Source of the DNA: Halarcobacter sp. | GTDB taxonomy: Bacteria; Campylobacterota; Campylobacteria; Campylobacterales; Arcobacteraceae | Assembly: GCA_048571215.1 (NCBI GenBank) | Contig: CP182352.1 | Location: 32,001-96,000 of the forward strand | Length of the DNA stretch: 64,000 nt | Direction: 5' to 3' | In this document: positions 18,584 to 43,191 of the stretch, one piece after another | Position numbering within the stretch: position 1 is the stretch's first letter | How the letters are laid out: the number at the start of each line of letters is the position of its first letter | Made by a program: the position numbers and the translations under genes | Notes under the pieces: generated by a model | What the model was told of the DNA's origin: nothing | The model's database searches: none | What the model saw: only the letters and a program-made list of their open reading frames with translations

Positions 18584-18584
18584 C

Positions 18585-18785: not shown

Positions 18786-18905
18786 CTTTACCCTCTTATT
18801 GTATTTTAAATAAAGATTTTATCAAAAATATCTTTATATTAAATCAAAGTGAAAAATTAAGTTTTAACTTGATTATCTTTGATAAAATATTTCAAAAGGA
18901 TAAAA

Positions 18906-21294: not shown

Positions 21295-22031
21295 TTTGTA
21301 TCCAATAAAAACTCATTTGCATCAATATCATAGAATTTTAGTTCATACTCTTTTGAAGCAGTTTTTGTTTCAAATATAAATCTAGGATTTTCACTAATTG
21401 GTGAATAAGTTTTGATTGTTGCTAAAGTCTTATCTTTAGTTTTTAGAACAATTTTATTGATATAAAAGGCACTATTACCAAATACTAAACCTGTTTCCAT
21501 AGGGTGAAAAATAGAACTTTTTATTCTATATGCATCATCTTTTTTAAAATATGTGATTTTACCCTTTCCTAAAAGTTTGTCAAAATCAGTATTACTTGAA
21601 GCTACACTTGCAACTGCACATCCTCCTCCAAAACTTTTGATATTGTTACTACCAATATGCCAAACCCCTTTTTCATCTAATACTAAAGCTCGAAGGGGTG
21701 TCTCTTGAGCTACTCTTATATTTAAAGAGATAAAAGGCAAAAGGTTTGTTAAATCCATATCTATAATTTTTGGAATAGGATTTAAATCAGCAAATAAAAT
21801 CATTCTTTTTGCATCTTTTATTTTTTTGGCATTGACTAAAATAGGAACCTGTACAGGGTTATCTGCAAAGCTTGGTACCTTTACGATAACATTTTTATCA
21901 TCAAAGATATACTCTTGATCCTTTATTATCTGTTTTATAATATCCTCAAATGTTGGAGATATGATGGGATTTTTAGCATATAAATTATGCGAAAATAAAA
22001 AAGATACTAGTAACAAGAGTATATGTTTCAT
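21291..22031 (-). CDS. Quinoprotein dehydrogenase-associated SoxYZ-like carrier
   Basis: SoxY-like half ending GGGC fused to a SoxZ-like half (HPMETGL, ISENP). Confidence 0.88.
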   Translation of the reverse strand: MKHILLLLVSFLFSHNLYAKNPIISPTFEDIIKQIIKDQEYIFDDKNVIVKVPSFADNPVQVPILVNAKKIKDAKRMILFADLNPIPKIIDMDLTNLLPFISLNIRVAQETPLRALVLDEKGVWHIGSNNIKSFGGGCAVASVASSNTDFDKLLGKGKITYFKKDDAYRIKSSIFHPMETGLVFGNSAFYINKIVLKTKDKTLATIKTYSPISENPRFIFETKTASKEYELKFYDIDANEFLLDTK

Positions 22032-22041
22032 GATAATTCCT

Positions 22042-22911
22042 TTATTGTGTTCTTGAAATTGGTGGTAGATAATCTACCCCATATTTTTCAAATATTTTTT
22101 TAATATTGCCTTTTTCATATTGTTGAGAGATAACTCCATCAATATAATAACTAAGTGGTTTATAACTAATTTCTACAGCTGTTGCCAAATCCCAGTGATT
22201 TCTTGCCACTTGTGGAATCGAATCACTTATGTAAATTTTGTCTTTGTTGTGTTTATAATCTAGATAAAATTCTAATTGAGATTTTAATCCTGCAATTGCA
22301 TCAAGTTTCCCATTTTTGAAATCTTTTATTGCATCTTCAAAATGGAAGTAGTGTTTAACATTTTTATTAATAAGTCCTCTGGCAAAAGCTGATAAGTGGG
22401 CATCTGGAAGCGTATCAAGTTCAACACCAACAGTTTGATATGCAAATATACCTAGTGTTGTGATTTTAGGGATTATTTTTTTATGAGTTGCAATCACCCA
22501 TTTTTCACTATGGTATGGTCCTTTTATTGAGACCATTTCAGTTTCAAGTTCACCTGTTTGTTTATCTGTAAGTCTCATATAATCATAATCATATGGGATT
22601 CTAAACATCATATCAGCTTTATTTTTATGAACTAAATTACCTTTCCAAATTACATTTCTTAAATCATCAGACAATGTTTCATCTGATCCTGTTAAATACC
22701 ATTTTGCTTTTACCCCTAGTGATTTAGCAATGATTTTTCCAAGATCAACATCTATCCCTTTTAGTTTCCCTTTTTCTTCAAATGAATAGGGTGGAAAGTC
22801 TTTATATACAGCAATCATAATATAACCACTGTCTTTAATCTCCTCAATACTTCGTGCATTTGCAAAGACTACTAAAAGAATAAATATTGTAGATAATTTA
22901 AGAAGTTTCAT
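22042..22911 (-). CDS. Periplasmic binding-protein-like partner of the quinoprotein system (PedG/MxaJ-like position)
   Basis: Signal peptide, VYKDFPPYSF, GIDVDLG; directly downstream of the cytochrome gene. Confidence 0.75.
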   Translation of the reverse strand: MKLLKLSTIFILLVVFANARSIEEIKDSGYIMIAVYKDFPPYSFEEKGKLKGIDVDLGKIIAKSLGVKAKWYLTGSDETLSDDLRNVIWKGNLVHKNKADMMFRIPYDYDYMRLTDKQTGELETEMVSIKGPYHSEKWVIATHKKIIPKITTLGIFAYQTVGVELDTLPDAHLSAFARGLINKNVKHYFHFEDAIKDFKNGKLDAIAGLKSQLEFYLDYKHNKDKIYISDSIPQVARNHWDLATAVEISYKPLSYYIDGVISQQYEKGNIKKIFEKYGVDYLPPISRTQ

Positions 22912-22912
22912 C

Positions 22913-23332
22913 TTATTCTAAACCAGCTTCTATTCTTTGAGATACTATATATGTTCTAATAGCCCAAATAGCTTCTTGACTTAATACTTCTGCAAATGAT
23001 GGCATATAAACATTACCATTTCTAGTTACACCACTTAAAACTTTACTAATAAAATAAGCATCTTCATCAGTTGGTAATTCTCTTAAATCAGGAGCAATAC
23101 CACCTGAAATAACATCTAAACCATGACATCTTGCACAGTTTTCACTATAACCTATTTTACCTACTTCTTGAGCTCTAGCATTTTCTTGTTTATATGGATT
23201 TTCGTCAAACCATTGATCTCCAAATTGTTTTAATCCTGTTGTGTCAACTTTTTGAGGTGTTACACTTCCATGTCCAAAAGCAAACACTGTTGCAAATAAA
23301 GTTGCAAAACCTAATTTTTGAATTTTATTCAT
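22913..23332 (-). CDS. pedF: Cytochrome c550, electron acceptor of PQQ-ADH
   Basis: Signal peptide, HGSVTPQKVDT, single CARCH heme motif, SGGIAPDLR, YMP. Confidence 0.9.
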   Translation of the reverse strand: MNKIQKLGFATLFATVFAFGHGSVTPQKVDTTGLKQFGDQWFDENPYKQENARAQEVGKIGYSENCARCHGLDVISGGIAPDLRELPTDEDAYFISKVLSGVTRNGNVYMPSFAEVLSQEAIWAIRTYIVSQRIEAGLE

Positions 23333-23472: not shown

Positions 23473-24453
23473 TTGAAAATGAAAAAACATATTATTCTAT
23501 TTTTTATATGTAGTTTAGTTTTAGTTTTTGCTAATGATAAATTAAAAATTGGAGTCTTATCTTATGGAACAGTTAATTGGGAATTAGATGTTTTAAAACA
23601 TCATAATTTAGATAAAAAGTATGGCTTTGATTTAGAGTTAGTAAATATAGCTTCAAAAAATGCTCAATCAATAGCTTTATTGGCAAATGAAGTAGATATG
23701 ATAGTTCATGATTGGGTTTGGATAAATTTACAGAAAAGTAAAAATAGAGATTATATGTTTTATCCCTATTCAAAAGCTACAGGTACATTAGTTGTAAATC
23801 AAAATATAAAAGATTTTGCAGATTTAAAAGAAAAAGAACTAGGAATAGCTGGGGGAAAGTACTCTAAAACTTGGCTTTTATTTAAGGCTTTTTATGAAAA
23901 AAAATATCAAAAAGATTTTCAAGATGAGGTTTCTGTCTTATATGCATCCCCTTCAATTTTATATTTGAAGATGTTAAACAACTCTTTAGATGCAGCAATT
24001 AATTTTTGGCATTTTAATTCAAAGTTGGAACCAAAAGGGATTAGACCACTTATCTCTATAAAAGAGGTTTTAAATGAAATAGGAATTAAATCGGATATAC
24101 CTTTTATAGGTTGGACGTTTTCAAAGAAGTTTGCTATGAAGAATAAAAAACTTATAAACTCTTTTATAAGTGCAAGTCATGAAGCAAAAGAGATTTTAAA
24201 AAATAGCGATGAAGAGTGGAATAGAATAAAAAGAATAATGAAAGTAAAAGATATAAAAACTTTCAATGCATTAAAAAACGGATATAAAAAAGGGATAATA
24301 AATCATCTTGATAAAACAACAATTGAAGATATGAAAAAAGTTTATACCATATTGGCAAAACAAAGTGGTTTTAAATATGTGGATAAAAACAGCACTTTAG
24401 ATGAAAGTATTTTTTGGAATTTTAATAAAGTAAAGTTAAAAGCAAATGAATAA
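23473..24453 (+). CDS. ABC transporter substrate-binding protein, NitT/TauT type
   Basis: Signal peptide, GVLSYGTVNWELD, NFWHF; followed by permease and ATPase. Confidence 0.82.
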   Translation: MKMKKHIILFFICSLVLVFANDKLKIGVLSYGTVNWELDVLKHHNLDKKYGFDLELVNIASKNAQSIALLANEVDMIVHDWVWINLQKSKNRDYMFYPYSKATGTLVVNQNIKDFADLKEKELGIAGGKYSKTWLLFKAFYEKKYQKDFQDEVSVLYASPSILYLKMLNNSLDAAINFWHFNSKLEPKGIRPLISIKEVLNEIGIKSDIPFIGWTFSKKFAMKNKKLINSFISASHEAKEILKNSDEEWNRIKRIMKVKDIKTFNALKNGYKKGIINHLDKTTIEDMKKVYTILAKQSGFKYVDKNSTLDESIFWNFNKVKLKANE

Positions 24454-25183
24454 TACCCAATCTAAAATATGTGCTATTTTAATATTTGTAATAATCTGGC
24501 AAGGAGGATCTTTAATGGTAGATTCAAGCCTTTTCCCAAGTGCGATGGATGTGCTTAGGAATCTTTATTATAATATCTTTGAAGATGATTTATTACATCA
24601 CCTTTTTATTACTTTGTATAGGGTATTTATCTGTTTTTTTATAACTTTGTTTATAGGGATGATAATGGGTTTATTAATGGGTTTTTATGAGGAGTTAAAT
24701 GAGGTTTTAGATTTTGTATTGATTTTGGCTTTAAATATCCCAGCACTAGTAACAATAATTATTTGTTATATTTGGTTTGGGCTTACAGATTTTGCAGCTA
24801 TTTTAGCTGTAGTTATAAATAAAGTTCCCATAGTAATAGTAAATATTAGAGAGGGAACTAGGGCTATGGATAAGAAATATAGCGATTTTGCAAAGGTTTA
24901 TAAATTATCACAAAAAGAGGTTTATAAAAATGTGTATCTACCCCAATTATTCCCTTATATAATGGCTACAGTTAGACTTTGTTTATCCTTGATTTGGAAA
25001 ATTGTTTTAGTGGTTGAACTATTAGGAAGAAGTGATGGTATTGGTTTCCAAATCTCGCAGTTTTTTCAGTTTTTTGATATCACATCAATCTTATCATATA
25101 CAATATCTTTTGTTACTGTGGTGGTTTTAATAGAAAGTTATATATTAAAACCTTTAGAATTAAAAACTAAAAGATGGAAATAA
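24446..25183 (+). CDS. ABC transporter permease, NitT/TauT type
   Basis: Hydrophobic; WKIVLVVELLGRSDGIG. Confidence 0.87.
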   Translation: MNNTQSKICAILIFVIIWQGGSLMVDSSLFPSAMDVLRNLYYNIFEDDLLHHLFITLYRVFICFFITLFIGMIMGLLMGFYEELNEVLDFVLILALNIPALVTIIICYIWFGLTDFAAILAVVINKVPIVIVNIREGTRAMDKKYSDFAKVYKLSQKEVYKNVYLPQLFPYIMATVRLCLSLIWKIVLVVELLGRSDGIGFQISQFFQFFDITSILSYTISFVTVVVLIESYILKPLELKTKRWK

Positions 25184-25184
25184 G

Positions 25185-25883
25185 ATGATAAGTATAAATA
25201 TTAATGAGAAGCGTTTTAATGAAACTGTCATTTTAAAAGATCTAGATTTTTCTTTAAACAAAAGTGAATTTATATCTATAATTGGACCATCAGGTTGTGG
25301 TAAATCAACCCTACTTAATATAATCTCTTTTTTAGATAATGATTATGTAGGGAAGATTAAAGGGGAGTTTTCAAATATATCTTTTATGTTTCAAGATCAT
25401 AGACTTCTTCCTTGGCTTAGCGTAAAAGATAATCTATTGTTGGTTTCAAAAACAAAAGATGAAAAAGAGATTATTGATTTATTAGAACTTATAGGTTTAG
25501 AAAATATATTGCATGAATATCCTAATAATCTATCAGGGGGGATGTTAAGACGTGTTTCTTTAGTTAGAGCTTTTATCAACAAACCCGATTTGATACTTTT
25601 AGATGAACCTTTTATCTCTTTAGATTATCCAACTTCACAAGCTTTAAAAAAAGAGCTTTTAGCTTTTTATAATAGGTTTAAAGCAACTATAATTTTAGTT
25701 ACACACGATATAAGTGAGGCTATATTATTATCAAATAGGATTTTGTTTTTTAGTAAAAATCCAGCAAAAGTTTTATTAGATTTCAAAAATCATGATAATC
25801 AAGTTTTTAATCAAAAAAGAAATGATGAGATAAAAAACAAAATTTTAGAAAAATATCCAAAAATATTAGAAGGAAAATTATGA
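25185..25883 (+). CDS. ABC transporter ATP-binding protein, NitT/TauT type
   Basis: GPSGCGKST, FQDHRLLPW, LSGGM, LDEPF. Confidence 0.9.
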   Translation: MISININEKRFNETVILKDLDFSLNKSEFISIIGPSGCGKSTLLNIISFLDNDYVGKIKGEFSNISFMFQDHRLLPWLSVKDNLLLVSKTKDEKEIIDLLELIGLENILHEYPNNLSGGMLRRVSLVRAFINKPDLILLDEPFISLDYPTSQALKKELLAFYNRFKATIILVTHDISEAILLSNRILFFSKNPAKVLLDFKNHDNQVFNQKRNDEIKNKILEKYPKILEGKL

Positions 25884-26290
25884 TTACATACAAAAAAAGC
25901 ATAGCTATAGCGCTATTATTAACAGCCTTAAACCTAGATGCTCAAAAAATACAGGTTTTTAAACCAATTGCAAGTACTTGTCCACAAAATTGGTTGGAAG
26001 ATATGAAAGAGTTAACTAATGAAGTTGAAATTGTAAATTTAAAAGATGTAAAAAGATTAAAACATGAGATGAAAATTCCCTATGAATTACGCTCTTGCAA
26101 TACCTCTATTATGGATGATTATATATTTGAAGGAAATGTACCTAAAGAAGCTATGAAAGAGTTTTTAAAAAACCCTGTTAAAGATGCTTTAGGACTTAGC
26201 TTACCAGCCTCAGAAAATCTTAAAAAAGAGAAAACTGTATATATACTTTTTAAAAACAATACTTATAAAGTTTTTGGAAAATACAAGTAG
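25880..26290 (+). CDS. Divergent DUF411/CopG-like periplasmic protein
   Basis: Signal peptide; SCNTS and YIFEGNVP align with DUF411 SCHTA and EGHVP. Confidence 0.65.
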   Translation: MITYKKSIAIALLLTALNLDAQKIQVFKPIASTCPQNWLEDMKELTNEVEIVNLKDVKRLKHEMKIPYELRSCNTSIMDDYIFEGNVPKEAMKEFLKNPVKDALGLSLPASENLKKEKTVYILFKNNTYKVFGKYK

Positions 26291-26452: not shown

Positions 26453-27655
26453 ATGAAAAAAAGGCTAGGGTTAATTAGTTTAGTTGCATCAATTGCAGTT
26501 ACATCTATGCAAGCGGGAGAGTTAGATTTAATCTCAGATTTAAAGATTAGTGGAGATGCAAGAGTTAGAGGAGTTTCAGTAAAGGGTGATACTGCAACTT
26601 CAGGTTCAACAGCTGCTACAAGACAAGATAAACAAAAATTTGAGTCAAGACTTAGATTAAATCTTGATTTTAAAGTAGATGATAGTGTAAGTATACATAC
26701 TAGAATTGTTGCAGATAATAATGCATGGGGAAACAATAATAATGATACTTTTACTTGGGATGAAGCTTATGTTGTTGTCCCATTCAATCAAGATAAGTTT
26801 TTATTAGCTGGTAGAATAGAAGATAGTTATGGTACTAAATTTTATGGTAGTAATGGTGATCCTATTGATTTAGCTTTAGTGGGATATAACCCAAAACCAA
26901 ATATTTTATTATATGCTTTTGATTATAAAGCAGTTGAGGGGTCTGTTGTAGATCAAGGTTCAAGTCTAGGTTTAAGTAATACTGGAAATGGGGACTTTGA
27001 CGCATACTCTATTGGTGGGCAAATCACTATTGATGAGATGTTAATGGGTGGTAGATATGTTTATTTACAAAATAATACTGCAATTGGTGGTGGCGCTTAC
27101 GCAGATGCAAATAGCCATATGTATAATGCTTTTGCCCTTGGGAAATATGCAGGACTTGATATTCAAGCACAAGTTGAAAAAAGAACAGGGGATAAATACT
27201 CTGGTGGTATTGTTGATGAAAAGATGTTTGGTGCATATCTAAATATAGCAAAAGATTTTGGAGATTTCAAAGCAGGACTTTCTGCTGTTAAAACTGAAAA
27301 GGGTTATGTTTCTGGCTCTGAATTACCTGTGTCATATTTAACTAATGATGATTTAGGTATGGCTGCACTTGGTAGAGTTGGAGCTTATGGAGATACTTCA
27401 CTTTATGCAGCAAATTTTTCTTATTCTCCTAGTGCAGATTTAACTTTTGAAGCAAATCTTGCTCATCATTCTATTGATAATGCAAGTTTTAATAGTATAA
27501 ATAAAGATTTAGAAATAATGGAATATGATGTAGGTTTATCTTATAATCTTACAAAAAACACTCAATTATCTTTAAGATATGCACAGGGTAATTTTGATGA
27601 GGGGAATTTAGAGGATCTATCAGTAGTAGTTGGTGCAGTAGAAATTAGTTTTTAA
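26453..27655 (+). CDS. Outer-membrane beta-barrel porin
   Basis: Signal peptide, ISGDARVR first strand, alternating amphipathic strands, C-terminal Phe; no plug domain. Confidence 0.8.
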   Translation: MKKRLGLISLVASIAVTSMQAGELDLISDLKISGDARVRGVSVKGDTATSGSTAATRQDKQKFESRLRLNLDFKVDDSVSIHTRIVADNNAWGNNNNDTFTWDEAYVVVPFNQDKFLLAGRIEDSYGTKFYGSNGDPIDLALVGYNPKPNILLYAFDYKAVEGSVVDQGSSLGLSNTGNGDFDAYSIGGQITIDEMLMGGRYVYLQNNTAIGGGAYADANSHMYNAFALGKYAGLDIQAQVEKRTGDKYSGGIVDEKMFGAYLNIAKDFGDFKAGLSAVKTEKGYVSGSELPVSYLTNDDLGMAALGRVGAYGDTSLYAANFSYSPSADLTFEANLAHHSIDNASFNSINKDLEIMEYDVGLSYNLTKNTQLSLRYAQGNFDEGNLEDLSVVVGAVEISF

Positions 27656-27701: not shown

Positions 27702-28166
27702 TTAAAAAATAACCTCTTCAATAATCTTTTTTATATTTTCATTTATCTCTTTTGCCATTTTTTCATCTTTTTTCAAAGGTTTAAATTTCATATATGAAAT
27801 GTAAAAGAAGTTTTGATTTTTTGTTTTATAAACAGCAAGTGAAAATGGACAAAAAAGAATATTATCTGGATTTTCAGCTAAAAGTCTAAAGGTAACAGAA
27901 CTTTTGCAAAAGGCAAGTTTTTTACTAAATTCTAAGTTAGATTTTTTATCTATAAGTTTTCCAATATTTTTAGTAAGCTTTGCAAAATCACCTTCATAGA
28001 CTATTTTATATCCATTTGCAAGTAGTTCATTTTTTAAAAGTAAGTATGTAGTTTGAATACTCTCTTGGCTTAGTTTATATTTTACAAAATAATCAGTCTC
28101 ATAAACTTCAATTTTAGCAAACAGCGTAGAAAAAAGTAAAATTATAAGTATAAGATATTTTATCAT
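27702..28166 (-). CDS. DUF302-like periplasmic protein
   Basis: Signal peptide; FC...ENPDNILFCPFSLAVY pattern. Confidence 0.65.
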   Translation of the reverse strand: MIKYLILIILLFSTLFAKIEVYETDYFVKYKLSQESIQTTYLLLKNELLANGYKIVYEGDFAKLTKNIGKLIDKKSNLEFSKKLAFCKSSVTFRLLAENPDNILFCPFSLAVYKTKNQNFFYISYMKFKPLKKDEKMAKEINENIKKIIEEVIF

Positions 28167-29311
28167 TGTTCACATCTCATCTCAAACTTTGCAACACCTA
28201 AGGTATCTAAATCTGTTAGGGGATGTAAGAATCCAACTTGTGGGGAAGTTGATATTAGTGCTCTTGGTTGAACTAAGGCTATTGGGGTTCTTAATTGACC
28301 ATTAAAGTCTCTAAAAGAGAGCTTTCTTCCCATATATGCACCAATTTCAAACTCTTTTGAACGTATAAATTTTATATTTTTTTCCAATGAAGCTGTTTGG
28401 GTTTTTGCAATTGAACTAATAATTGTTCTAATAGCAACCCAGTTTGAAAAATCTTTTTGTTCCATCCATCTTTTAGCAAATTTTTCAAATCTGCTTTGCA
28501 TTTGTGCAGCTCCCCAGGCTTCTATTACTTTATGCCATTGTAAAGGTTTAAGTCCTTGAGTTCCAGCTATTGGTCTAGGAAGCCAGGTATTAAAAGATAA
28601 AAACTCACCAAAATCTCCATAAAAATCTGCCACCATTACAAGATCATAATCGCTAGCTTGTGTAAATGCTGGAAATTCAGCTGTTGCTTTTCTTCTAATA
28701 TCACTATTGTTTTCCCAAACTTTTTCTTTAACAATAGAAGCACCAAATTTTTTGATTGACTTTTTCATATCCTTTTTTATCTCAATATCTTTTGGATTTG
28801 TTCCACTAATCAAAAAAATCTTTTTAAAATTTCGTTTTACTAAAAACTGAACTAGTCCATCATAAAGCATACTATTACTAGGAATTGTATGTATAAAGTT
28901 TTGTTTACAATAGTCTTTTCTAAGATTTGTATTAAGACTGCTTGCATTTATAAGTAAGGCTTTTGAAGATAATTTAGAATTGATTAGTTTTTTTAGTAAT
29001 TTAGTTTCAACATTTAGTATAATATATGAGTTCCCTTCATTTATAAACTTATTAAAAGCTTCAATAAGTTCATTTTCATCATAAGATATTTTTTCAATTA
29101 GATTAAAATGTTGGTTTAGAAATCTTGCACTTTTATTACTATCTTTTACTGCAAGTCTTGCACCTTGTATTCCTAAATCTTTTGGTTCTTCAATTACATT
29201 TGAAAGTACGGGTGGTTTTTTAATTTTTTGTTCTAGGTATAAAATATTTACATCCAAAGTTTGTGCACTTAAAAAACTTGTTAATAAAAATAAATAGATA
29301 ACTAATCTCAT
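28163..29311 (-). CDS. ABC substrate-binding protein of the PQQ-ADH system (PedA1-like)
   Basis: DGLVQFL, DFYGDFG, TWLPRPIAGTQGL, SPQVGFLHP...LDTLG; true start likely ATG 29311 (signal peptide, RBS, promoter lies within the longer ORF call). Confidence 0.85.
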   Translation of the reverse strand: MRLVIYLFLLTSFLSAQTLDVNILYLEQKIKKPPVLSNVIEEPKDLGIQGARLAVKDSNKSARFLNQHFNLIEKISYDENELIEAFNKFINEGNSYIILNVETKLLKKLINSKLSSKALLINASSLNTNLRKDYCKQNFIHTIPSNSMLYDGLVQFLVKRNFKKIFLISGTNPKDIEIKKDMKKSIKKFGASIVKEKVWENNSDIRRKATAEFPAFTQASDYDLVMVADFYGDFGEFLSFNTWLPRPIAGTQGLKPLQWHKVIEAWGAAQMQSRFEKFAKRWMEQKDFSNWVAIRTIISSIAKTQTASLEKNIKFIRSKEFEIGAYMGRKLSFRDFNGQLRTPIALVQPRALISTSPQVGFLHPLTDLDTLGVAKFEMRCEQ

Positions 29312-29337
29312 AGTATCCCTTTTAATTGATTTTAATA

Positions 29338-29369
29338 AGTATATTAAAGTTTTATAGCCTGAATTTAGC
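29338..29369 (-). promoter_or_regulatory. Regulon promoter for the pedA1-like gene
   Basis: GCTAAATTCAGGCTATA (29369-29353), 9 nt, TATACT (29343-29338). Confidence 0.8.
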
Positions 29370-29381
29370 AAGAATTACCTT

Positions 29382-29413: not shown

Positions 29414-29440
29414 GGCATAAATAAAAAATTGGAGTGGGAA

Positions 29441-30400
29441 ATGAAAAAATTGATTTTATCTGGAGTTCTAATTTCAAGTGCACTTTTTGCCGATACAATT
29501 TATGTATCAAATGAAAAGGACAATACAGTAAGTGTAATTGACTCTAAAACAAATAGTGTTGTAAATACTATAGAGGTTGGTCAAAGACCAAGGGGTATAT
29601 TATTATCAAATGATTATTCAAAACTTTATATTTGTGCAAGTGATGATGACACTGTCCAAGTTATGGATACAAAAACAAATAAAATTTTATATAATCTACC
29701 ATCAGGAGAAGATCCAGAACAATTTGCATTAACTCCAGATAATAAAGAGCTTTATATCTCAAATGAGGATGATGCAATTGTAACAGTTGTTGATACTGAA
29801 AAGAGAACTGTTTTAGCACAAATTGATGTTGGAGTTGAGCCTGAAGGGATGGCAGTAAGTCCAGATGGTAGTGTTGCAATAAATACAACTGAAACTTCAA
29901 ACTTTTTACACTGGATAGATACAAAAACAAAAAAAATCATCCACAATACTTTAGTAGATCAAAGACCAAGACATATTGAGTTTTCCAAAAATGGGGATAT
30001 GGTTTGGGCATCAAGTGAGATTGGTGGAACAGTTATGGTTGTAGATGCAAAAACTAAAAAATCTGTTGCTAAGATAGGTTTTAAAATACCTGGTATATTT
30101 AAAGATTTGATTCAGCCAGTTGGAATAAAACTAACAAGTGATGGAAAATATGCTTTTATAGCACTTGGACCTGCTAATCATGTTGCGGTTGTTGATGCCA
30201 AAACATATAAAGTAATCAAATATTTACTTGTAGGAAAAAGAGTTTGGCAATTAGCTTTTGTAAATGGGGAGGATAAACTTTACACAACAAATGGAGTTAG
30301 TGGGGATGTATCTATTATAGATGTGCCTTCATTAAAAGTTGAAAAAAGTGTAAAAGTTGGAAGATACCCTTGGGGACTTGCTGTAATACCAAGTAAATAG
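29441..30400 (+). CDS. PQQ-catabolism-associated YVTN beta-propeller protein (PedA2-like)
   Basis: YVSNEKDNTVSVID, VGQRPRGI, VGVEPEGMAVSPDG, VGRYPWG repeats; start ATG 29441. Confidence 0.9.
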   Translation: MKKLILSGVLISSALFADTIYVSNEKDNTVSVIDSKTNSVVNTIEVGQRPRGILLSNDYSKLYICASDDDTVQVMDTKTNKILYNLPSGEDPEQFALTPDNKELYISNEDDAIVTVVDTEKRTVLAQIDVGVEPEGMAVSPDGSVAINTTETSNFLHWIDTKTKKIIHNTLVDQRPRHIEFSKNGDMVWASSEIGGTVMVVDAKTKKSVAKIGFKIPGIFKDLIQPVGIKLTSDGKYAFIALGPANHVAVVDAKTYKVIKYLLVGKRVWQLAFVNGEDKLYTTNGVSGDVSIIDVPSLKVEKSVKVGRYPWGLAVIPSK

Positions 30401-31128: not shown

Positions 31129-31911
31129 ATGAATATATATTTAAATTGTCTAAAAGGGATAATATACAAAGAATTAATAAGATTTTTAAAACAAAAAAGT
31201 AGATTCTTTTCAGCACTTGTAAGACCTTTGCTTTGGTTATTTATTTTTTCAGTAGGATTTAAAACTGCTTTAGGTTTAGCAATAATTCCTCCATATGAAA
31301 CCTATATCACTTATGAAACATATATAGTTCCAGGTCTTGTGGGGATGGTTTTGCTTTTTAATGGGATGCAAAGTTCTTTAACTATGATATTTGATAGAGA
31401 GATGGGAAGTATGAAAATACTTTTAGCATCTTATATAAATAGAAATTATCTTTTATTTTGTAAAATGTTTGCAACCTCTCTTGTCTCAACTATGCAGGCA
31501 CTAACTTTTTTAGTGATTGCAAAACTTTATGGAATTGATATCTCCATTATTGCTATTATTGCTACTATTCCAGTGATAATAATCTCTTCAATTGTTTTAA
31601 ATGCTTTTGCACTTTTTATCTCTTCTGTTATAAGACAGTTAGAAAACTTTGCAACAGTTATGAATTTTGTAATTTTTCCTATGTTTTTCTTAAGTTCAGC
31701 ACTTTATCCCCTTTGGAAAATAAAAGATTCTTCACTTATTTTATTTAACATCTCATCATCTAATCCTTTTACTTATATTGTAGAAGCTATTAGGTTCAGT
31801 TTGTATTTAAAAGTAGATGAAAAAAGCTTTATAATAGTTGGTATTTCCTTGGTTATAACCCTAGTTATGGCATTTTTAGGATTTAAATCTAAAAAAGTTA
31901 ATAATGGCTAA
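31129..31911 (+). CDS. ABC-2 permease of the PQQ-ADH system (PedC-like)
   Basis: SALVRPLLWL, IIPPYETYITYE, QLENFATVMNFVIFPMFFLSSALYPLW. Confidence 0.88.
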   Translation: MNIYLNCLKGIIYKELIRFLKQKSRFFSALVRPLLWLFIFSVGFKTALGLAIIPPYETYITYETYIVPGLVGMVLLFNGMQSSLTMIFDREMGSMKILLASYINRNYLLFCKMFATSLVSTMQALTFLVIAKLYGIDISIIAIIATIPVIIISSIVLNAFALFISSVIRQLENFATVMNFVIFPMFFLSSALYPLWKIKDSSLILFNISSSNPFTYIVEAIRFSLYLKVDEKSFIIVGISLVITLVMAFLGFKSKKVNNG

Positions 31912-31938
31912 ACTGAGGCTATAAACCTCATGTATACT
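31907..31938 (+). promoter_or_regulatory. Regulon promoter for the PQQ-ADH/pqq operon
   Basis: GCTAAACTGAGGCTATA (31907-31923), 9 nt, TATACT (31933-31938). Confidence 0.82.
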
Positions 31939-31988: not shown

Positions 31989-33767
31989 ATGCTAAGCAAA
32001 AAACTACTAACTAGCGCAGTTGCCGTTACACTATCTGCACTAATTAGCGGGTGTGTTTCTACGAACAGCACAATGAATAGTAACATAAGTGAGGTTACAA
32101 AGCCCTCATATGCACCTGTTACATATGATGAAATCTTAAATGATGAGAAGTCTACAGAAGATGTTCTTACATATGGACATGGTCAAAAAGGACAAAGGTT
32201 CTCACCACTTACTCAAATTAATAAAGAGACAGTAAAAGATTTAGTTCCTGTATGGAATTTCTCTTTTGGTGGTGAAAAACAAAGAGGTCAAGAGTCTCAA
32301 CCACTTGTAAAAGATGGAGTTATGTATGTAACAGCTTCTTATTCAAGAATTTTTGCAATTGATATTGCAACTGGTGAAGAGCTTTGGCAATATGATTCAA
32401 GACTTCCAGCTGGAATCTTACCTTGTTGTGATGTAATCAACAGAGGTGCTGCACTTTATGATAATCTAGTGATTTTTGGAACACTAGATGCTAAGTTAGT
32501 AGCACTTGACAGAAAAACTGGAAAAGTTGTTTGGAAAAAGAAAGTAGCTGATTATAAAGAGGGATATTCAATTACAAATGCACCACTAATAGTAAAAGAC
32601 ATGGTTGTAACTGGTGTTGCTGGTGGTGAGTTTGGTATTGTTGGAAAAGTTGAAGCAAGAGATGCTAAAACTGGTGAAGTTGTTTGGACTAGACCAACAG
32701 TTGAAGGACATATGGGATACTTAAATGGTAAACCAAATGGTATTACAGGTGGACAAGTTGGTAAAACATGGCCAGGAGATATGTGGAAAAATGGTGGAGC
32801 TGCAACATGGCTTGGTGGAACATATGATCCTGAAACTGATTTGATTTTCTATGGAGCAGGAAACCCAGCACCTTGGAATTCACATACAAGACCAGGTGAT
32901 AACTTATACTCTTCTTCTAGACTTGCTATTAATCCAGATACGGGAAAAATTGTTTGGCATTTCCAAACAACTCCACACGATGGTTGGGATTTTGATGGTG
33001 TAAATGAGTTAGTTTCATTTAACAAAGATGGTAAAAAATTAGCAGGTACTGCTGATAGAAATGGTTTCTTCTATGTATTAAATAGAGAAAATGGTAAATT
33101 TATTACTGCTAATCCATTTGTTTCAAATATTACTTGGGCAAAAGGTATTGATAAAAATGGTAGACCAATCTATAATGATGCAAATAGACCAGGAAATCCA
33201 GATGGTGCTTCAAAAGGTAAATCAGTATTTGCTGTTCCTTCATTCTTAGGTGGTAAAAACTGGATGCCAATCTCATACTCTAAAAAGACACAGATGTTCT
33301 ATGTTCCTTCAAATGAGTGGGGAATGGATATTTGGAATCAACCAATTCATTATAAAAAAGGTGCAGCATATTTAGGTGCAGGATTTACAATCAAACCAAT
33401 TTTCGAAGATCATATTGGTTCACTTAAAGCAATTGATCCATTAACAGGTAAGATTAAATGGGAATATAAAAACCCAGCTCCATTATGGGCAGGGGTATTA
33501 ACTACTGCTGGTGGACTTGTATTTACAGGAACTCCTGAAGGTAAATTCTTAGCATTTGATGATGAAACTGGAAAAATCCTTTACAAATTTAATGCTGGTT
33601 CAGGAATCGTTTCTTCTCCAATTACTTGGGAGCAAAATGGTGAACAATATATCGCAATCGTATCTGGTTGGGGTGGAGCTGTTCCTTTATGGGGTGGAAA
33701 AGTTGCAAAACTTATTAAAAACATCAACCAAGGTGGAACTGTACACGTATTTAAACTACATAAATAA
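31989..33767 (+). CDS. pedH: Type I PQQ-dependent alcohol dehydrogenase, lanthanide-type (PedH/ExaF-like)
   Basis: [39 protein letters not shown] (D-x-D), [12 protein letters not shown]; no heme domain. Confidence 0.9.
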
Positions 33768-33790: not shown

Positions 33791-33865
33791 ATGAAATGGG
33801 AAACACCTGCATTTATAGATAATAGATTTGGTTTTGAAGTTACAATGTACATTTGTCATGTATAA
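33791..33865 (+). CDS. pqqA: PQQ precursor peptide PqqA (not in the ORF track)
   Basis: MKWETPAFIDNRFGFEVTMYICHV*, E-x-x-x-Y motif, AGGAGG RBS, upstream of pqqB. Confidence 0.95.
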   Translation: MKWETPAFIDNRFGFEVTMYICHV

Positions 33866-33982: not shown

Positions 33983-34900
33983 ATGAGAATACAAGTATTG
34001 GGTTCAAGTGCTGGTGGAGGACTTCCACAATTTAATTGTAATTGTGATAATTGCAAAGGTTATAGAGAAGGAAAAACAAGTATTAAAAAAAGAACTCAAA
34101 GTTCAATCACTATAAGTGAAGATGGAGAAAATTGGGTTTTATTTAATACTTCCCCAGATATTTTAGAACAAATTCATAACTCACCGTTTTTACAACCAAA
34201 AGATGCAAGACGCGAAACTAAAATAAAAGCTATAGTTTTTATAGATGCACAGATTGATCATACAACAGGGCTTTTGATGTTAAGGGAAGGTTGTCCCCAT
34301 GAAGTTTATTGTACAAAAGAGGTTCATGAGGAACTAAATACTTCATTTCCTTTATTTAAGATGCTTACTCACTGGGATGGTGGAGGAGTTAAATATAATG
34401 AGATTTCATTTAATAAACAACCATTTGAGATACCAGTTATGCCAAACTATGAGTTTTATGCAATGCCCTTAATCTCAAATGCACCACCATATTCAAAATA
34501 TAGAGATAAACCAAGAGTAGGGGATAATATTGGAGTTGTAGTTAAAAATAAAACTACAGGAAAAAAACTTTTTTATCTTCCAGGACTTGGAGTTGCGGAA
34601 CCTAGAATTATTCAAGAGATGAGTGAAGCAGATATTTTACTTGTTGATGGAACTTTATGGACAAATGATGAGATGATAAGAAATGGTTTTTCAACAAAAC
34701 TTGGTACTGATATGGGACATATCCCATTAAGTGGAGAGGATGGTCTTATAAAAATACTTGATGGTATGAGTAAACCAAGAAAAATACTAATACATATAAA
34801 TAATACAAATCCAATTTTGGATGAAACAAGTAAAGAATATGCCCAACTTATATCACATGGGATAGAAGTGTCTTACGATGGTATGAGTATAGAGATTTAA
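33983..34900 (+). CDS. pqqB: PQQ biosynthesis protein PqqB
   Basis: LGSSAGGGLPQFNCNCDNC, RTQSSI, QIDHTTGLLMLREG, LIHINNTNPIL. Confidence 0.96.
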   Translation: MRIQVLGSSAGGGLPQFNCNCDNCKGYREGKTSIKKRTQSSITISEDGENWVLFNTSPDILEQIHNSPFLQPKDARRETKIKAIVFIDAQIDHTTGLLMLREGCPHEVYCTKEVHEELNTSFPLFKMLTHWDGGGVKYNEISFNKQPFEIPVMPNYEFYAMPLISNAPPYSKYRDKPRVGDNIGVVVKNKTTGKKLFYLPGLGVAEPRIIQEMSEADILLVDGTLWTNDEMIRNGFSTKLGTDMGHIPLSGEDGLIKILDGMSKPRKILIHINNTNPILDETSKEYAQLISHGIEVSYDGMSIEI

Positions 34901-34925
34901 TAAAGAAGATAAAAAAGGAAATATC

Positions 34926-35222
34926 ATGAAAAATATAGTGATTGTAGCTAACGTTAAAGTAAAAGATGGATTTAAAGATGAAGTTTATTCTGAACTTTTA
35001 AAATTACATGAAGCAACTCACAAATATGATGAGGGGTGTATTCAATACGATTTGCACAAAAACTTAGATGATGAAAATAGTTTTACTTTTGTAGAAACTT
35101 GGCAAAATGCAAATCTTTTAGAAGAGCATATGAAAAAAGAACATTTTTTACAATTTGCTCAATCTGTAGATGGTAAATTAGAAAATTTGGATATACAAAA
35201 ATTAGAAAAAGTTAATTTATAA
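34926..35222 (+). CDS. ABM-family (putative quinol) monooxygenase
   Basis: DEGCIQYDLH, FTFVETW, LEEHMKKEHF. Confidence 0.85.
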   Translation: MKNIVIVANVKVKDGFKDEVYSELLKLHEATHKYDEGCIQYDLHKNLDDENSFTFVETWQNANLLEEHMKKEHFLQFAQSVDGKLENLDIQKLEKVNL

Positions 35223-35234
35223 AAGGAGAAGAAA

Positions 35235-35990
35235 ATGACAAAAAGAATGGATAGATTATTATCAAAAGAAGAGTTTGAAGCAAAACTAAGAGGTATGGGT
35301 GAGATGTACCATATTCATCATCCTTTCCATATAAGAATGTATGAAGGTACTTGTACTAAAGAGGAGATTAAAGGTTGGGTTGCAAATAGATTTTATTATC
35401 AAACAGCAATTCCAATTAAAGATGCAGCAATTATGTCAAATAACCCACCACTAGAAGATAGAAGAAAGTGGATTGATAGAATTATAGACCATGATAGTGT
35501 AGGTGGTGGAATAGAGGCTTGGTTAGAACTTGGTGAAGCTGTAGGACTAGATAAAGAGGATTTGATTTCTCACAAATATGTATTACCAGCGGTTAAGTTT
35601 GCAGTTGATGCTTATGTAAATTTTGCAAAACAATCTCCATGGAAAGAATCTGCAATGTCTTCATTAACTGAGATGTTTGCACCACAAATTCACCAACAAA
35701 GACTTGATACTTGGCCTAAAAACTACCCTTGGATAGAACAAAAAGGTTTAAGATATTTTCAAAAAAGATTAACAGAAGCAAGAAGAGATGTACAACATGG
35801 TTTGGCTTTAACTTTAGAAGAGTTTAATACTGTTGAACTACAAAATAGAGCTTGCGAAATTTTACAGTTTAAACTTGATATATTATGGGTTATGGTTGAT
35901 GCTTTATATTTAGCTTATGAGCTTAAAAGACCACCATATTTTAATATAAAGGGTTGTAATGCAACTAGAAAAATCACTTGTAGTGAATAA
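35235..35990 (+). CDS. pqqC: Pyrroloquinoline-quinone synthase PqqC
   Basis: [44 protein letters not shown]. Confidence 0.96.
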
Positions 35991-36228
35991 TCACTTCCAA
36001 TTACAATATGAAGATGCCCAAGAGTGTTTTGTTTTACTCTATCCAGAAGGGATGGTTCAACTAAATCAAAGTGCAGGTGAAATAATGAATCTATGTGATG
36101 GGAAAAACTCTTGTTTAGATATTGCTAAAATATTGGAAGAAAAGTTTAATATGAGTGATTTAAAAAAAGATGTGGAGGCTTTTTTAATTGAGGCCTTAGA
36201 GCGTAAGTGGGTGATGTATGAAAACTGA
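35959..36228 (+). CDS. pqqD: PqqA-binding chaperone PqqD
   Basis: [19 protein letters not shown]. Confidence 0.94.
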
Positions 36229-37330
36229 TATTAAACCACCTCTTTGGATGCTTTTAGAGTTGACTCATAAGTGTCCTTTGGAGTGTTCATATTGCTACAA
36301 CCAACTAGATTTTGCTAATACAAAAGATAGTATGAGTAAAGAAGATTGGTTTAGGGTTTTAGAAGAAGCACGGGCTATGGGTGCAGTTCAATTAGGACTC
36401 TCTGGAGGTGAGCCTCTTTTAAATAAAGACATTTTAGAGATTGTAAAAAAAGCTAGTGATTTAAAGTTTTATACAAATCTTATAACCTCAGGAGTTGGGG
36501 CTGATTTATCAATAGTTCCAAAACTAAAAGAGGCAGGATTAAAAACTGTGCAACTTGGGATTCAATCCCACGATGCAAATACAACTGCCCTTATTACAAA
36601 TAATAAAAATGCCCAAGCAGATAAAATAGCTTTTGCAAAAGCTTGTAAAGATAATGGTTTACAACTTATTGTAAACTCATGTATCACTAGACAAAATATT
36701 CATCAAATTGGTGAGATAATTGAGTTTGCTGATTCAATTGGTGCAAACTATTTAGAAGTGGCAAATATACAATATTATGGTTGGGCATTAGAAAATATAA
36801 ATGCCCTTTTACCAACACAAGAGCAACTAACAAAAGCAAAAGAGATTGTGGATTATTACAGGGAAAAAAGAAAAGATATGAAAGTGTTTTTTGTAGTTCC
36901 AGATTATTTTGCAACTAGACCAAAGGCATGTATGAATGGTTGGGGAACTACCTTTTTAACTATCAATCCAGATGGTTTAGCACTTCCATGTAATACAGCA
37001 AATACTTTGCCTTTAGAGTTTCCAAATGTAAAAGAGTATAGTGTAGCCCAAATATGGAATGATTCTGAAGCCTTTAACTTCTTTAGAGGTGATAAGTGGA
37101 TGAAAGAACCTTGTAGAACTTGTCCTGAAAAAGAGGCAGATTTTGGTGGATGTAGATGTCAAGCATATGCTTTAACAAAAGATATGAATGAAGCTGATCC
37201 TGTTTGTGATAAATCAAGTTATCATAATGTGGTTTTAGATAAAGTTGAAACGGCTTTAAAATCTACAAACAAACCAATTTATAGAAATAAACAAAATTCA
37301 TTAATATTTTCTAACAAAACAAGAGTATAA
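36218..37330 (+). CDS. pqqE: PqqA peptide cyclase PqqE (radical SAM-SPASM)
   Basis: ELTHKCPLECSYC, PKACMNGWG, DFGGCRCQA. Confidence 0.96.
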   Translation: MKTDIKPPLWMLLELTHKCPLECSYCYNQLDFANTKDSMSKEDWFRVLEEARAMGAVQLGLSGGEPLLNKDILEIVKKASDLKFYTNLITSGVGADLSIVPKLKEAGLKTVQLGIQSHDANTTALITNNKNAQADKIAFAKACKDNGLQLIVNSCITRQNIHQIGEIIEFADSIGANYLEVANIQYYGWALENINALLPTQEQLTKAKEIVDYYREKRKDMKVFFVVPDYFATRPKACMNGWGTTFLTINPDGLALPCNTANTLPLEFPNVKEYSVAQIWNDSEAFNFFRGDKWMKEPCRTCPEKEADFGGCRCQAYALTKDMNEADPVCDKSSYHNVVLDKVETALKSTNKPIYRNKQNSLIFSNKTRV

Positions 37331-40392: not shown

Positions 40393-41052
40393 CTAATGAG
40401 GTCTTTCAACCATATACCCAATACCTCTAATGTTTATAATAAAATCCTCTTTTAGAACTTTTTTTACTCTATTTACTTCTGCTCTTATTGTTGCATTATC
40501 TATATAGTCATCGTTCCATACATAATCCCTAAACATATCATAATTACAAACCAAACTTCTATTTGCTGCAAGCAAGTCTATTATTTGTATTTGTCTTTTA
40601 GGTAAAATTTGAGGCTCATTATTAAACAATAAAATCATATTTTTTGAATCATAACTATAAGATTTTGATAATCTTTTATGTTCTTGTGGAACAATATTTG
40701 TTTTTAGAATTTTATTTATTCTAAGGGTTAGTTCTTTTAAATGAAAAGGTTTTTTTAGATAATCGTGACAACCTATATCAAAAGCTCTTGTAATATCTTC
40801 AATATCTATTAGTGCAGATATAAAAATAGTAGGTACCATCCTTTTTTGTTTATGTAAATCTTCTAAAATAGATATTCCATCTTGATCTGGAACATTTATA
40901 TCAAATACTAAGAGGTCAAATTTATCTTCTGCTAAAGCTTCTTTACATGAATTCCCATCAGTTACTGAAATAACTTTATGTCCAGTTGAATTAAGATATT
41001 GAGTTATTGCTTTATTTAACATAATATCATCTTCTAATAGTAATATTTTCAT
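40393..41052 (-). CDS. OmpR/PhoB-family response regulator
   Basis: LLEDD, FDINVPD, DYLKKPF receiver motifs; winged helix ending NIRGIGY. Confidence 0.92.
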   Translation of the reverse strand: MKILLLEDDIMLNKAITQYLNSTGHKVISVTDGNSCKEALAEDKFDLLVFDINVPDQDGISILEDLHKQKRMVPTIFISALIDIEDITRAFDIGCHDYLKKPFHLKELTLRINKILKTNIVPQEHKRLSKSYSYDSKNMILLFNNEPQILPKRQIQIIDLLAANRSLVCNYDMFRDYVWNDDYIDNATIRAEVNRVKKVLKEDFIINIRGIGYMVERPH

Positions 41053-42944
41053 TTAGATCCTTTAAATAAATAAGTAAAACTTGTTTGTTCTGAATTTGAT
41101 TTTACATCTATGGATACATTCTCTTCCTCACAAATTCTTTTAACTAAATTTAATCCTAGCCCAAAACCATCTTTTGAATGCTCTTCTCTATAATATTCAT
41201 CAAATATTTTTTCCGGTTCTTGAATTCTTTTTGAATGACTAGCAACTGAAAATATAATGTTTTGTTTATCTTTCATAAGATCAACTTCTATACTCTCTCC
41301 TTCATAAGTATATTTAATAGCATTTGTTAAGGAGTTATCAATTATCCTTTGCAGTTTAGTCTCACTAAATTCTATTATAATTTTTGTAGCATTTGTTCTA
41401 AAAATAAATTCAGAATTTGTCATATTTGTAGCAACATTTTTAAAAAATTCTATTCTACTTCTAAGGTAATCTATAAAATCTATTGAATAAACTTTATATT
41501 CAATTTGATCTTTTTTCACTAAATAACTCAAGTCATCATATATGGAGAAGATGTTTTTAACTGCAACTTCAATATTTTCTAAATAGATACTTTTCCCATG
41601 TTCCATCTCATGTAGATCAATATTACTTACAATAACAGACAAAGGGGTATTTGTTTCATGAACAGAATGTTTTAAAAATATTTTTTGATTTTTTAAAAGT
41701 TGTTCAGAATATGCTATTTGTTTTTCTAAAGCTTTAGATTGCTCATTTTGGTCTCTTGCACTTTGTTGAATAAGGTTTGTCAATGCTTGAATAGTTCTTG
41801 CATATGAAAGATCTTGAGGGTTAACCATATTATTGGAAGGGGCAATTTTTTTATTTAGGTGGGGATTTTCCGATAAACCAACTAAAGTAATAGTTTGGTT
41901 CATAAGTTTGTTTTGTTTATTTGTATGGAAAAACTCAGCATAAGTAAAAAATCCAGAAGTTGTAGATATAGAAGCAAAGGGATCAATCTCTATTTTTGTT
42001 AAGTTTTGCATATATCTACGTCTTGCCATGCACGAGTATACAAAAAAAGTTTCAGAGGGTTGTGATTCTATATTTTTTAGATAATCAAAAGGTGTATTGA
42101 TAATTCTTTCAGCATCTGCAAATCCAAGTCTTACTTTATCTCCTTCATATAAACCACCTGCACAACCTAAGCTTCCATCGGGATATTTTGTAACAGTTGC
42201 CCTTGCTATAAAAATACCATCTCTTTGGACGATTAGAGGAAACTCAGTAAAAGTAGCTAGATTTCCACCACCTAAATATTTTTCATAAAAATCTATGGCT
42301 TTCATTCCTGAAATCTCATAAATTCTATTACCCTCTATTTTATCAATAGTATGTTCTATCCCTATTGGAGACCAACCATGTTTAATGTCATTTGCAACTT
42401 GAAGTACATCAGAGTTTAAAGATACGGCAACTGCACCTTGGCTAATAACTGTTGTACCTAAGCTAATATAAGTTTTTTGAAATTTTCCATTATCACCAGC
42501 CATTCCACCACAAACCATAGTTGAGTCACTATAAGAGTTTATCCCATTTAGATATTTTTCACCATCTGTTGAAGTACTATCTGTAAACGATATAATTAGT
42601 TTTGAATTTGGTGTAACTATATCTTGTGCTATCTCATAACCATTTTTAAAAGAGTCATCATTATTTTTATATGAACCTTTTATTGTAGTATTTTCAAAAA
42701 CGCAGATTGCTATTATAGTTTTTAGTGTTGAAACTTCTCCATCTCTTATCTCCCCATCTGTTGTGCTACCTATACAAATAGCTTGGGGAATATTTTCTTG
42801 TAGTAATTTTGTTAAATATTGAAGTGTACTTACATTTTGACCACAAAATATTTGAACTAAGATATTTTTTTCATTTTCAAATAGCTTGTAATCTATTTTA
42901 TTTTCAAATTGATTGTTTTCATAAGTATAATTGTATGTTTTCAT
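41049..42944 (-). CDS. Soluble FIST-domain sensor histidine kinase
   Basis: FIST motifs GSTTDGEI, GGMAGD, YSCMARR, GFFTYAEF; H-box HETNTPL, NAIKY, GFGLGL; no TM helix seen. Confidence 0.88.
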   Translation of the reverse strand: MKTYNYTYENNQFENKIDYKLFENEKNILVQIFCGQNVSTLQYLTKLLQENIPQAICIGSTTDGEIRDGEVSTLKTIIAICVFENTTIKGSYKNNDDSFKNGYEIAQDIVTPNSKLIISFTDSTSTDGEKYLNGINSYSDSTMVCGGMAGDNGKFQKTYISLGTTVISQGAVAVSLNSDVLQVANDIKHGWSPIGIEHTIDKIEGNRIYEISGMKAIDFYEKYLGGGNLATFTEFPLIVQRDGIFIARATVTKYPDGSLGCAGGLYEGDKVRLGFADAERIINTPFDYLKNIESQPSETFFVYSCMARRRYMQNLTKIEIDPFASISTTSGFFTYAEFFHTNKQNKLMNQTITLVGLSENPHLNKKIAPSNNMVNPQDLSYARTIQALTNLIQQSARDQNEQSKALEKQIAYSEQLLKNQKIFLKHSVHETNTPLSVIVSNIDLHEMEHGKSIYLENIEVAVKNIFSIYDDLSYLVKKDQIEYKVYSIDFIDYLRSRIEFFKNVATNMTNSEFIFRTNATKIIIEFSETKLQRIIDNSLTNAIKYTYEGESIEVDLMKDKQNIIFSVASHSKRIQEPEKIFDEYYREEHSKDGFGLGLNLVKRICEEENVSIDVKSNSEQTSFTYLFKGSK

Positions 42945-43125: not shown

Positions 43126-43191
43126 TTCATTACAGAAAAAGTTTGCTTGACAAAATTTTTCATGTTATTAATATTTATAAAAGGAAAAAAA

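Follow-up and report, generated by a model that had tools for sequence, protein, structure and literature searches.

The window, which is the whole stretch of 64,000 nucleotides that was analysed, was found to contain a PedH-type PQQ alcohol dehydrogenase surrounded by a near-complete ped/pqq cluster of 25 kb (20374 to 45124), and the enzyme is predicted from its sequence to be lanthanide-dependent, with a probability of roughly 0.9. The lanthanide type proposed in the first-pass annotation was supported by the motif, the tree, the fold and the helper genes, and the enzyme was placed specifically as an orthologue of PedH, which acts on multi-carbon alcohols, and not of XoxF. It is an ordinary PQQ-ADH of type 2b whose chemistry is already known, and rare-earth use in the phylum is apparently unreported; new here is the repeated co-loss of pedA1, pedA2, pedG and a PqqT-like gene together with the lanthanide enzyme.

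Dehydrogenase sequence, fold and phylogeny

The open reading frame proposed for the dehydrogenase was borne out, with 592 aa and no internal stops, and was found to contain the following features:

31989..33767, plus strand: PedH-type PQQ alcohol dehydrogenase, 592 aa, with lipobox ISG-C22, C146-C147 and a metal/PQQ site of E214, N292, D334, D336 and R357
32988..32996, plus strand: D334-F335-D336, the catalytic Asp and the extra lanthanide-type Asp, invariant in 50/50 aligned homologues

D334 and D336 were both encoded by GAT, at 32988 and 32994, respectively, and C146-C147, E214 and N292 were all found where the first reading had placed them, followed by the active-site residue R357. The 11-residue motif at residues 330-340 was found to be identical to that of PedH of Pseudomonas putida KT2440 (PP_2679; 6ZCW, 6ZCV; type 2b), with which the protein shared 68% identity, a TM-score of 0.89 and the vicinal Cys pair. 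F419 and W568 were the same residues in 6ZCW, a fused haem domain was absent and PedH could be aligned over the whole length of the protein (592 aa). The D-x-D was contained in all 121 top proteins of the protein search, among the matches listed. The comparison drawn earlier at the D336 column was correct, ExaA (1FLG) containing Ser and two MxaF-type proteins from Methylobacterium/Methylorubrum genomes containing Ala.

The family model TIGR03075 was matched over its full length at 796.5 bits against a curated cut-off of 480, so the match is not a chance one. The best PDB matches by sequence were PedH 6ZCW (889 bits) and 6ZCV (885 bits), followed by the Ca-dependent ExaA 1FLG (677 bits) and then by type II enzymes and XoxF/MxaF (at most 383 bits). 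An AlphaFold2 model, built from a 50-sequence alignment and without metal or PQQ (pLDDT 81.6, pTM 0.86), was predicted to form the eight-bladed beta-propeller of a type I PQQ alcohol dehydrogenase, with PedH and ExaA as the best folds. Its top match was 6ZCW (TM 0.89, rmsd 2.0, 68% identity); the TM-score of ExaA was also 0.89 and by itself cannot tell PedH from ExaA.

The phylogeny that had been suggested as a check was calculated with FastTree on 154 rows and with IQ-TREE (LG+G4) on 56 of those rows, and both placed the dehydrogenase in the Asp-type clade, outside the Ser-type PedE/ExaA and the XoxF/MxaF clades. The IQ-TREE supports were 97/97 for the Asp-type clade, 100/100 for the Ser-type clade and 100/100 for XoxF/MxaF, the reference clades being genome orthologues typed by motif and not the characterised proteins themselves. 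Matches of fewer than 450 aligned residues, duplicate loci, glucose-dehydrogenase-like matches and one further protein set except P0120 were excluded. The identity to XoxF/MxaF was 39-43%, on a separate branch (100/100), and a Ser at the extra-ligand position, as in the calcium-type PedE/ExaA, was absent. The Asp-type proteins of Arcobacteraceae and one named Sulfuricurvum sp. formed one clade (100/99), the sister of which was formed by gammaproteobacterial PedH-type proteins including those of Pseudomonas (100/99), and the Ser-type proteins of Arcobacteraceae formed a single clade of their own (100/99). The outside rows were the best 80 of at least 600 matches, so that their sampling is biased, and long branches were flagged at the root; the topology would fit an old acquisition from Pseudomonadota, no donor being claimed. 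A diverged subclade occupied 21/49 family tree rows, most of them with altered residues beside the motif (e.g., NDGWDYDGISE).

The closest homologues, 83-90% identical among the matches listed, were found on Arcobacter, Aliarcobacter or Arcobacteraceae records; the 90% cluster of the dehydrogenase contained an Arcobacter arenosus protein, and the cluster look-up for PqqE likewise gave Arcobacter species. Type 2b proteins of a Halieaceae cluster were 76% identical. Contigs from four metatranscriptomes aligned to the gene, mostly at less than 90% and thus from relatives, and as contigs they are no proof of transcription. The N-terminal lipoprotein-type signal ISG-C22, which like the surrounding cluster went unmentioned in the first-pass annotation, predicts periplasmic lipid anchoring. 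A lipobox was found in 28/49 family proteins with an intact start and was missing in 21/49, and anchoring is therefore predicted to be a variable trait within the Arcobacteraceae enzymes.

The Ca-dependent PedE/ExaA enzymes (1FLG) were found to share the fold, 54-56% identity, the Cys pair and the catalytic Asp, but they contain Ser at the D336 position, form a separate clade and are in Arcobacteraceae always accompanied by the pentapeptide gene pedD (9/9). The enzyme resembled ExaF of Methylorubrum extorquens AM1 in belonging to the same Asp-type clade, at about 70% identity to Methylobacterium/Methylorubrum orthologues (AM1 ExaF itself lay outside the set), whereas ExaF works alongside XoxF and MxaF in a methylotroph and the present enzyme is the sole PQQ dehydrogenase. 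P. putida PedH was reported to show none of its activity under the Ca conditions of PedE, to be active with La to Tb, to work best on C2-C6 alcohols and to oxidise aldehydes too, methanol being a poor substrate (0.8 versus 11 U/mg with ethanol) (PMC5487730, in part). In ExaF, the D319S change abolished La-dependent growth, so that the extra Asp is needed (10.1101/2020.02.25.964783, in part).

The ped/pqq cluster and its upstream box

The cluster was found to contain the following further features:

20374..21294, minus strand: quinoprotein relay zinc metallohydrolase, SoxH-like (cf. PP_2678); TIGR04558 350 bits, over cut-off
21291..22031, minus strand: quinoprotein-associated SoxYZ-like carrier (cf. 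PP_2677); TIGR04557 152.7 bits, over cut-off
22042..22911, minus strand: PedG/XoxJ-like periplasmic binding protein, name based on PF00497 and on the adjacent pedF
22913..23332, minus strand: cytochrome c550 PedF, predicted electron acceptor; TIGR04494 177 bits, over cut-off; CxxCH motif
23473..24453, plus strand: PqqT-like putative periplasmic PQQ-binding protein, likely start 23479; K132 aligns with PqqT K142
24446..25883, plus strand: ABC permease (24446-25183) and ATPase (25185-25883) after the PqqT-like gene
25880..26290, plus strand: DUF411 protein
26453..27655, plus strand: probable outer-membrane porin, weak matches only
27702..28166, minus strand: DUF302-like protein, below cut-off
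28163..29371, minus strand: PedA1-type substrate-binding protein, likely start 29311; TIGR03863 415.7 bits, over cut-off
29429..30400, plus strand: PedA2-type YVTN beta-propeller, likely start 29441; TIGR03866 501.7 bits
30403..31125, plus strand: PedB ATPase; TIGR03864 283 bits, under the cut-off of 302
31129..31911, plus strand: PedC ABC-2 permease; TIGR03861 341 bits, over cut-off
31907..31922, plus strand: direct-repeat box GCTA-N7-GCTA with an 11-bp period, candidate regulator site upstream of the dehydrogenase
33791..33865, plus strand: pqqA precursor peptide, 24 aa; TIGR02107 43.5 bits, over cut-off
33983..37330, plus strand: pqqB (33983-34900), ABM-family gene (34926-35222), pqqC (35235-35990), pqqD (35959-36228) and pqqE (36218-37330)
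40393..42944, minus strand: OmpR-type response regulator (40393-41052) and FIST-domain histidine kinase (41049-42944), candidate cluster regulators
43147..44688, plus strand: ExaC/PedI-like aldehyde dehydrogenase, likely start 43192; NF050026 834 bits, under the cut-off of 900
44744..45124, plus strand: DUF779 protein

The genome was thus found to contain a PedA1A2BC-type transporter (PedB under cut-off), cytochrome c550 and PQQ supply. The neighbouring pedF, pedG, SoxYZ-like, SoxH-like, pedA1A2BC and aldehyde dehydrogenase genes are those of the PedH locus, and the roles of the Pseudomonas ped counterparts are described in PMC12997753 and PMC6839425 (both in part), the latter reporting that PedA1A2BC is required for PedH growth at low La. 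Unlike the P. putida locus, the cluster contained pqqABCDE directly downstream of the dehydrogenase and a PqqT-like ABC system, and unlike P. putida PedH, the enzyme was found in a Campylobacterota host, with the lipobox C22 and in a genome without PedE and PedD. The regulators were a fused FIST kinase and an OmpR-type protein, whereas Pseudomonas contains the LuxR-type PedR2/AgmR set (PMC12997753, in part); in relatives, the regulator and FIST kinase genes were found to adjoin both enzyme types.

The PqqT-like protein matched PqqT of M. extorquens AM1 (PDB 9B1U; PMC11331073, in part) over nearly the full length at E 9.6e-44 and is a putative PQQ binder. The equivalents of PqqT L37, T41, G112, K142 and I222 were found to be conserved, the Lys at K142 in 25/25 rows, whereas Y188 was replaced by Phe, N143 by Thr, E111 by Thr and D141 by Ser in the window copy.

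The interval from pqqE to the regulator contained dauA (37412-39037) and an IS256-family transposase (39113-40329; two ORFs of 306 and 105 aa), an insertion not seen at that place in the loci of relatives. The ABM-family gene (PF03992) between pqqB and pqqC was found at the same place in only 2 long loci of relatives. Some relatives contained an exported protein of 139 aa between pedA1 and pedA2 (L135:5558-5977), which was absent from the window cluster; it gave no Pfam or NCBIfam match, and its Atlas neighbours were hypothetical or cupredoxin-like. An FdhF-type molybdopterin oxidoreductase (16502-18601; formate dehydrogenase alpha-like, below cut-off) was found two genes from the cluster edge. 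A leucyl aminopeptidase (18879-20342) flanked the cluster, as it does in several relatives of both enzyme types, which suggests a shared ancestral cluster site, and a second copy, 52% identical, was found elsewhere in the genome. Lanmodulin is marked by Pro at position 2 of the EF-hand loop. A motif scan for lanmodulin-like proteins gave three EF-hand-like ORFs, none with this Pro; a 211-aa protein about 69 kb from the dehydrogenase (L196:2215-2850) contained four EF-hand-like loops, likewise with Pro at position 2 in none. The motif scan gave no candidate for an outer-membrane lanthanide receptor either.

The GCTA-N7-GCTA box was found upstream of pedF, the PqqT-like gene, pedA1, pedA2, the dehydrogenase and exaC, and the strict pattern gave 7 matches in the genome, all of them inside the cluster. 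A looser pattern was found upstream of 52/55 Asp-type ORF rows and 9/9 Ser-type rows against 15/3483 upstream windows genome-wide, figures that are overstated in that both patterns were written after the sequences had been viewed; the 3 Asp-type rows without a box were cut contigs or a split gene, and some genomes were counted twice. The N6 spacing (10-bp period) gave 0 matches in the cluster and was rejected in favour of N7. As the box lies upstream of both enzyme types, it is likely an induction mark for the whole cluster and not a metal switch, and the adjacent regulator probably acts on it. Looser boxes also occurred outside the window (L192, L193, L194), before genes for the small subunit of a NiFe hydrogenase, for cytochrome b of a fumarate reductase and for a flavoprotein reductase.

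Distribution in the family and co-loss of helper genes

A search of 184 Arcobacteraceae genomes gave 59 with a match, one of them a weak match of 49 residues, and 58 were counted. The PedH (Asp) type was found in 53/58 genomes, 4 of which also contained a Ser-type copy, and the Ser type alone in 5/58; paired Ca- and Ln-type enzymes were thus present in only 4/58 family genomes with a PQQ-ADH. The D-x-D was read directly in 51/53 Asp-type genomes, the other two containing contig-end fragments that stop before the motif. Among the genomes at least 90% complete (n=152), 48 contained the Asp type (44 Asp-only and 4 with both) and 5 were Ser-only, so that the gene is no rarity of this genome. Orthologues at 69-99% were found in 10/22 genera with the gene order kept. 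Named D-x-D proteins were found from Arcobacter nitrofigilis DSM 7299, A. arenosus, A. roscoffensis, Malaciobacter pacificus and Poseidonibacter lekithochrous. The PedH-type gene of one genome (G167; L139:9567-11376) lay in two frames, split near residue 350, and is a pseudogene or an assembly error.

In other Campylobacterota families, 0 full-length matches were found in 377 genomes and in an overlapping sample of 361 genomes; one fragment (G687) from the other-family sample was set aside, as it sits at a contig end with 45% GC. Named Sulfuricurvum, Sulfurovum and Campylobacteraceae MAG proteins do exist, and either the enzyme also occurs outside the family or the names of these records are imprecise.

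The helper genes were found to follow the enzyme type. The pedA2 gene was present in 51/53 Asp-type genomes, pedG in 52/53 and the PqqT-like gene in 51/53, and each of them in 0/5 Ca-only and 0/126 other family genomes. The Asp-type genomes missing helper genes were G021 (76% complete), G142 (78% complete) and G065 (280 contigs). For pedA1, ten genomes were covered, with 0/5 in the Ca-only genomes, 3/3 in complete controls and 0/2 in incomplete ones. The pentapeptide gene pedD was found in exactly the 9/9 genomes with a Ser-type enzyme and in 0/175 others. On the PqqB+C+E tree, which covered the 40 of 58 genomes with all three genes available, the 5 Ca-only genomes need 5 separate changes, as forced by the starred branches. 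With five independent contrasts, the sign test yields p 0.0625 at best, 0.05 being out of reach; the trait was entered against itself, since the presence of pedG and of the PqqT-like gene matches it without exception in the rows concerned. The co-loss is support for lanthanide use that does not depend on the motif (sign test, p 0.06).

The retention of other genes in the Ca-only genomes speaks against a simple co-loss reading. The SoxH- and SoxYZ-like genes, suggested to matter under lanthanide conditions (PMC12997753, in part), were retained in the 4 Ca-only genomes whose loci extend that far, and pedC was retained in 3/5, so that the PedBC half of the transporter would not be lanthanide-specific; the Pfam signature of PedC is ABC-2, exporter-like. 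The pedB and pedC genes were present without pedA1 and pedA2 in these three genomes (L130, L133, L137), which together with the signature hints at a lanthanide-independent job of PedB/PedC. In 3/4 two-enzyme genomes (L132, L134, L135), pedE-pedD interrupted the run of lanthanide genes, being placed between pedA2 and pedB, and a PedS2/PedR2-like pair was not seen in these three loci. The Pseudomonas-type REE switch (PedE/PedH with PedS2/PedR2) differs from the present genome, which contains a single enzyme.

These patterns led to a tentative proposal, more apt to fail in some part than to hold throughout. About one third of Arcobacteraceae species would be obligate lanthanide users in periplasmic alcohol respiration, with neither a Ca back-up nor a rare-earth switch, and the five Ca-enzyme swaps would expose a lanthanide-only kit (PedA1, PedA2, PedG and the PqqT-type PQQ-binding ABC system) that is lost with PedH although the synthesis and use of PQQ continue. 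In that case PqqT would work specifically for the lanthanide enzyme, to shield, recover or deliver PQQ, and PedBC, which three Ca-only genomes retain, would have a function that needs no lanthanide.

Alcohol oxidation, rival readings and meaning

The absence of a Ca-type paralogue, claimed earlier for the window, was found to hold across the whole 3.61-Mb genome, as tblastn, phmmer and PF01011 each matched this gene only and gave no second PQQ alcohol dehydrogenase; PedD was missing from the genome like PedE. The further suggestion that alcohol oxidation may depend strictly on lanthanides is well founded for the periplasmic PQQ route alone, as a YqhD-like Fe-ADH elsewhere in the genome may act on alcohols too. 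This Fe-ADH, the only one in the genome, has 377 aa, with PRK15138/YqhD as best match (396 bits, under the cut-off of 645). Isocitrate lyase was not found in the genome, only a partial match in a 297-aa frame being present, and growth with ethanol as the only carbon source is therefore not assured.

In the proposed mechanism, a light lanthanide (La, Ce, Pr or Nd) would likely be held by E214, N292, D334, D336 and PQQ, and the exported, lipid-anchored enzyme would oxidise ethanol and other primary alcohols in the periplasm, a substrate range taken from P. putida PedH. By orthology, PQQ would come from pqqABCDE, the lanthanide would be supplied via PedA1A2BC, PedG would aid maturation, electrons would reach a cbb3 oxidase by way of the C146-C147 disulfide and then cytochrome c550 PedF, and the aldehyde product would be oxidised by the ExaC-like enzyme. 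PedH and PedF are a textbook pair, and ccoN was present in the genome. Two steps come from this analysis alone, namely that the PqqT-like ABC system may hold or recover PQQ for the lanthanide enzyme, and that the FIST kinase and the OmpR-type regulator may turn the cluster on through the GCTA-N7-GCTA boxes. Without lanthanides the PQQ route would be off, because the Ca-type enzyme is absent and there is nothing to switch to.

Dependence of whole-cell alcohol oxidation on the lanthanide enzyme is fairly likely. A cytoplasmic NAD(P) enzyme that also oxidises alcohols, making whole-cell use lanthanide-free, is somewhat unlikely; it is compatible with a lanthanide-dependent PedH orthologue and limits only the last step of that explanation. 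The YqhD-like Fe-ADH and two medium-chain reductases could provide such a route, but the best matches of the latter are families of acrylyl-CoA reductases and quinone reductases, the Fe-ADH has unrelated neighbours and is about 90 kb away from the cluster, YqhD-type enzymes mainly reduce aldehydes, and neither an AdhE-length protein nor a GMC oxidoreductase was found in the genome. A main job in detoxifying or scavenging aldehydes or unusual alcohols, or in methanol oxidation, in place of ethanol-type respiration, appears quite improbable. The missing isocitrate lyase and the aldehyde oxidation by PedH (PMC5487730, in part) would agree with it, but the enzyme is far from XoxF/MxaF in identity and clade, methanol is the weak substrate of PedH in the same source, and the ExaC-like dehydrogenase has the same upstream box.

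It is highly improbable that lanthanides are preferred while useful Ca activity is kept, leaving the cell without strict dependence. Being the only PQQ dehydrogenase in 44/53 good genomes having any could select for such flexibility, and the diverged subclade has its changed motif-side residues. Some XoxF enzymes have been reported to contain Ca or to work with it. For XoxF1, Ca binding was accompanied by little or no activity (10.1101/2020.02.25.964783, in part). The motif is, however, identical to that of PedH in 6ZCW, an enzyme inactive with Ca (PMC5487730, in part), and the Ca-using lineages acquired a separate Ser-type gene and are without the helper genes. The chance of contamination or of a recent non-functional import is close to nil. 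The absence of the gene from the 377 sampled genomes of other families and the IS256 element within the cluster might suggest it, but the genome forms a single contig (3.61 Mb, 28.5% GC, 100% complete), the gene has a GC3 of 0.164 where the genome median is 0.159, the catalytic residues are all intact, and synteny across the family, with orthologues in 10 genera, largely excludes it.

The earlier statement that no characterised example is known in the phylum agreed with the literature listings that were searched, in which no report on lanthanides or rare earths and an alcohol dehydrogenase of Arcobacter or Arcobacteraceae, or of Campylobacterota, was found; the surveys of Huang 2019 (ISME J) and Keltjens 2014 could list Arcobacter. 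The orthologue of A. nitrofigilis DSM 7299 has a public record and may therefore already appear in such surveys. Campylobacterota and Arcobacter terms were absent from the available main text of PMC11996626, where its 14 phyla are unnamed, and from the available parts of PMC11845868, PMC12124388, PMC5487730 and 10.64898/2026.07.10.737718.

If the lanthanide reading is true, Campylobacterota would join the phyla with lanthanide-using enzymes through a family often found in samples of sediment, wastewater and roots, and there would be cultured strains whose single enzyme is of the lanthanide type. Lanthanide-free standard media would mask the alcohol use of such strains. The co-loss pattern would offer a direct test of which ped helpers serve the metal and of the purpose of PqqT.
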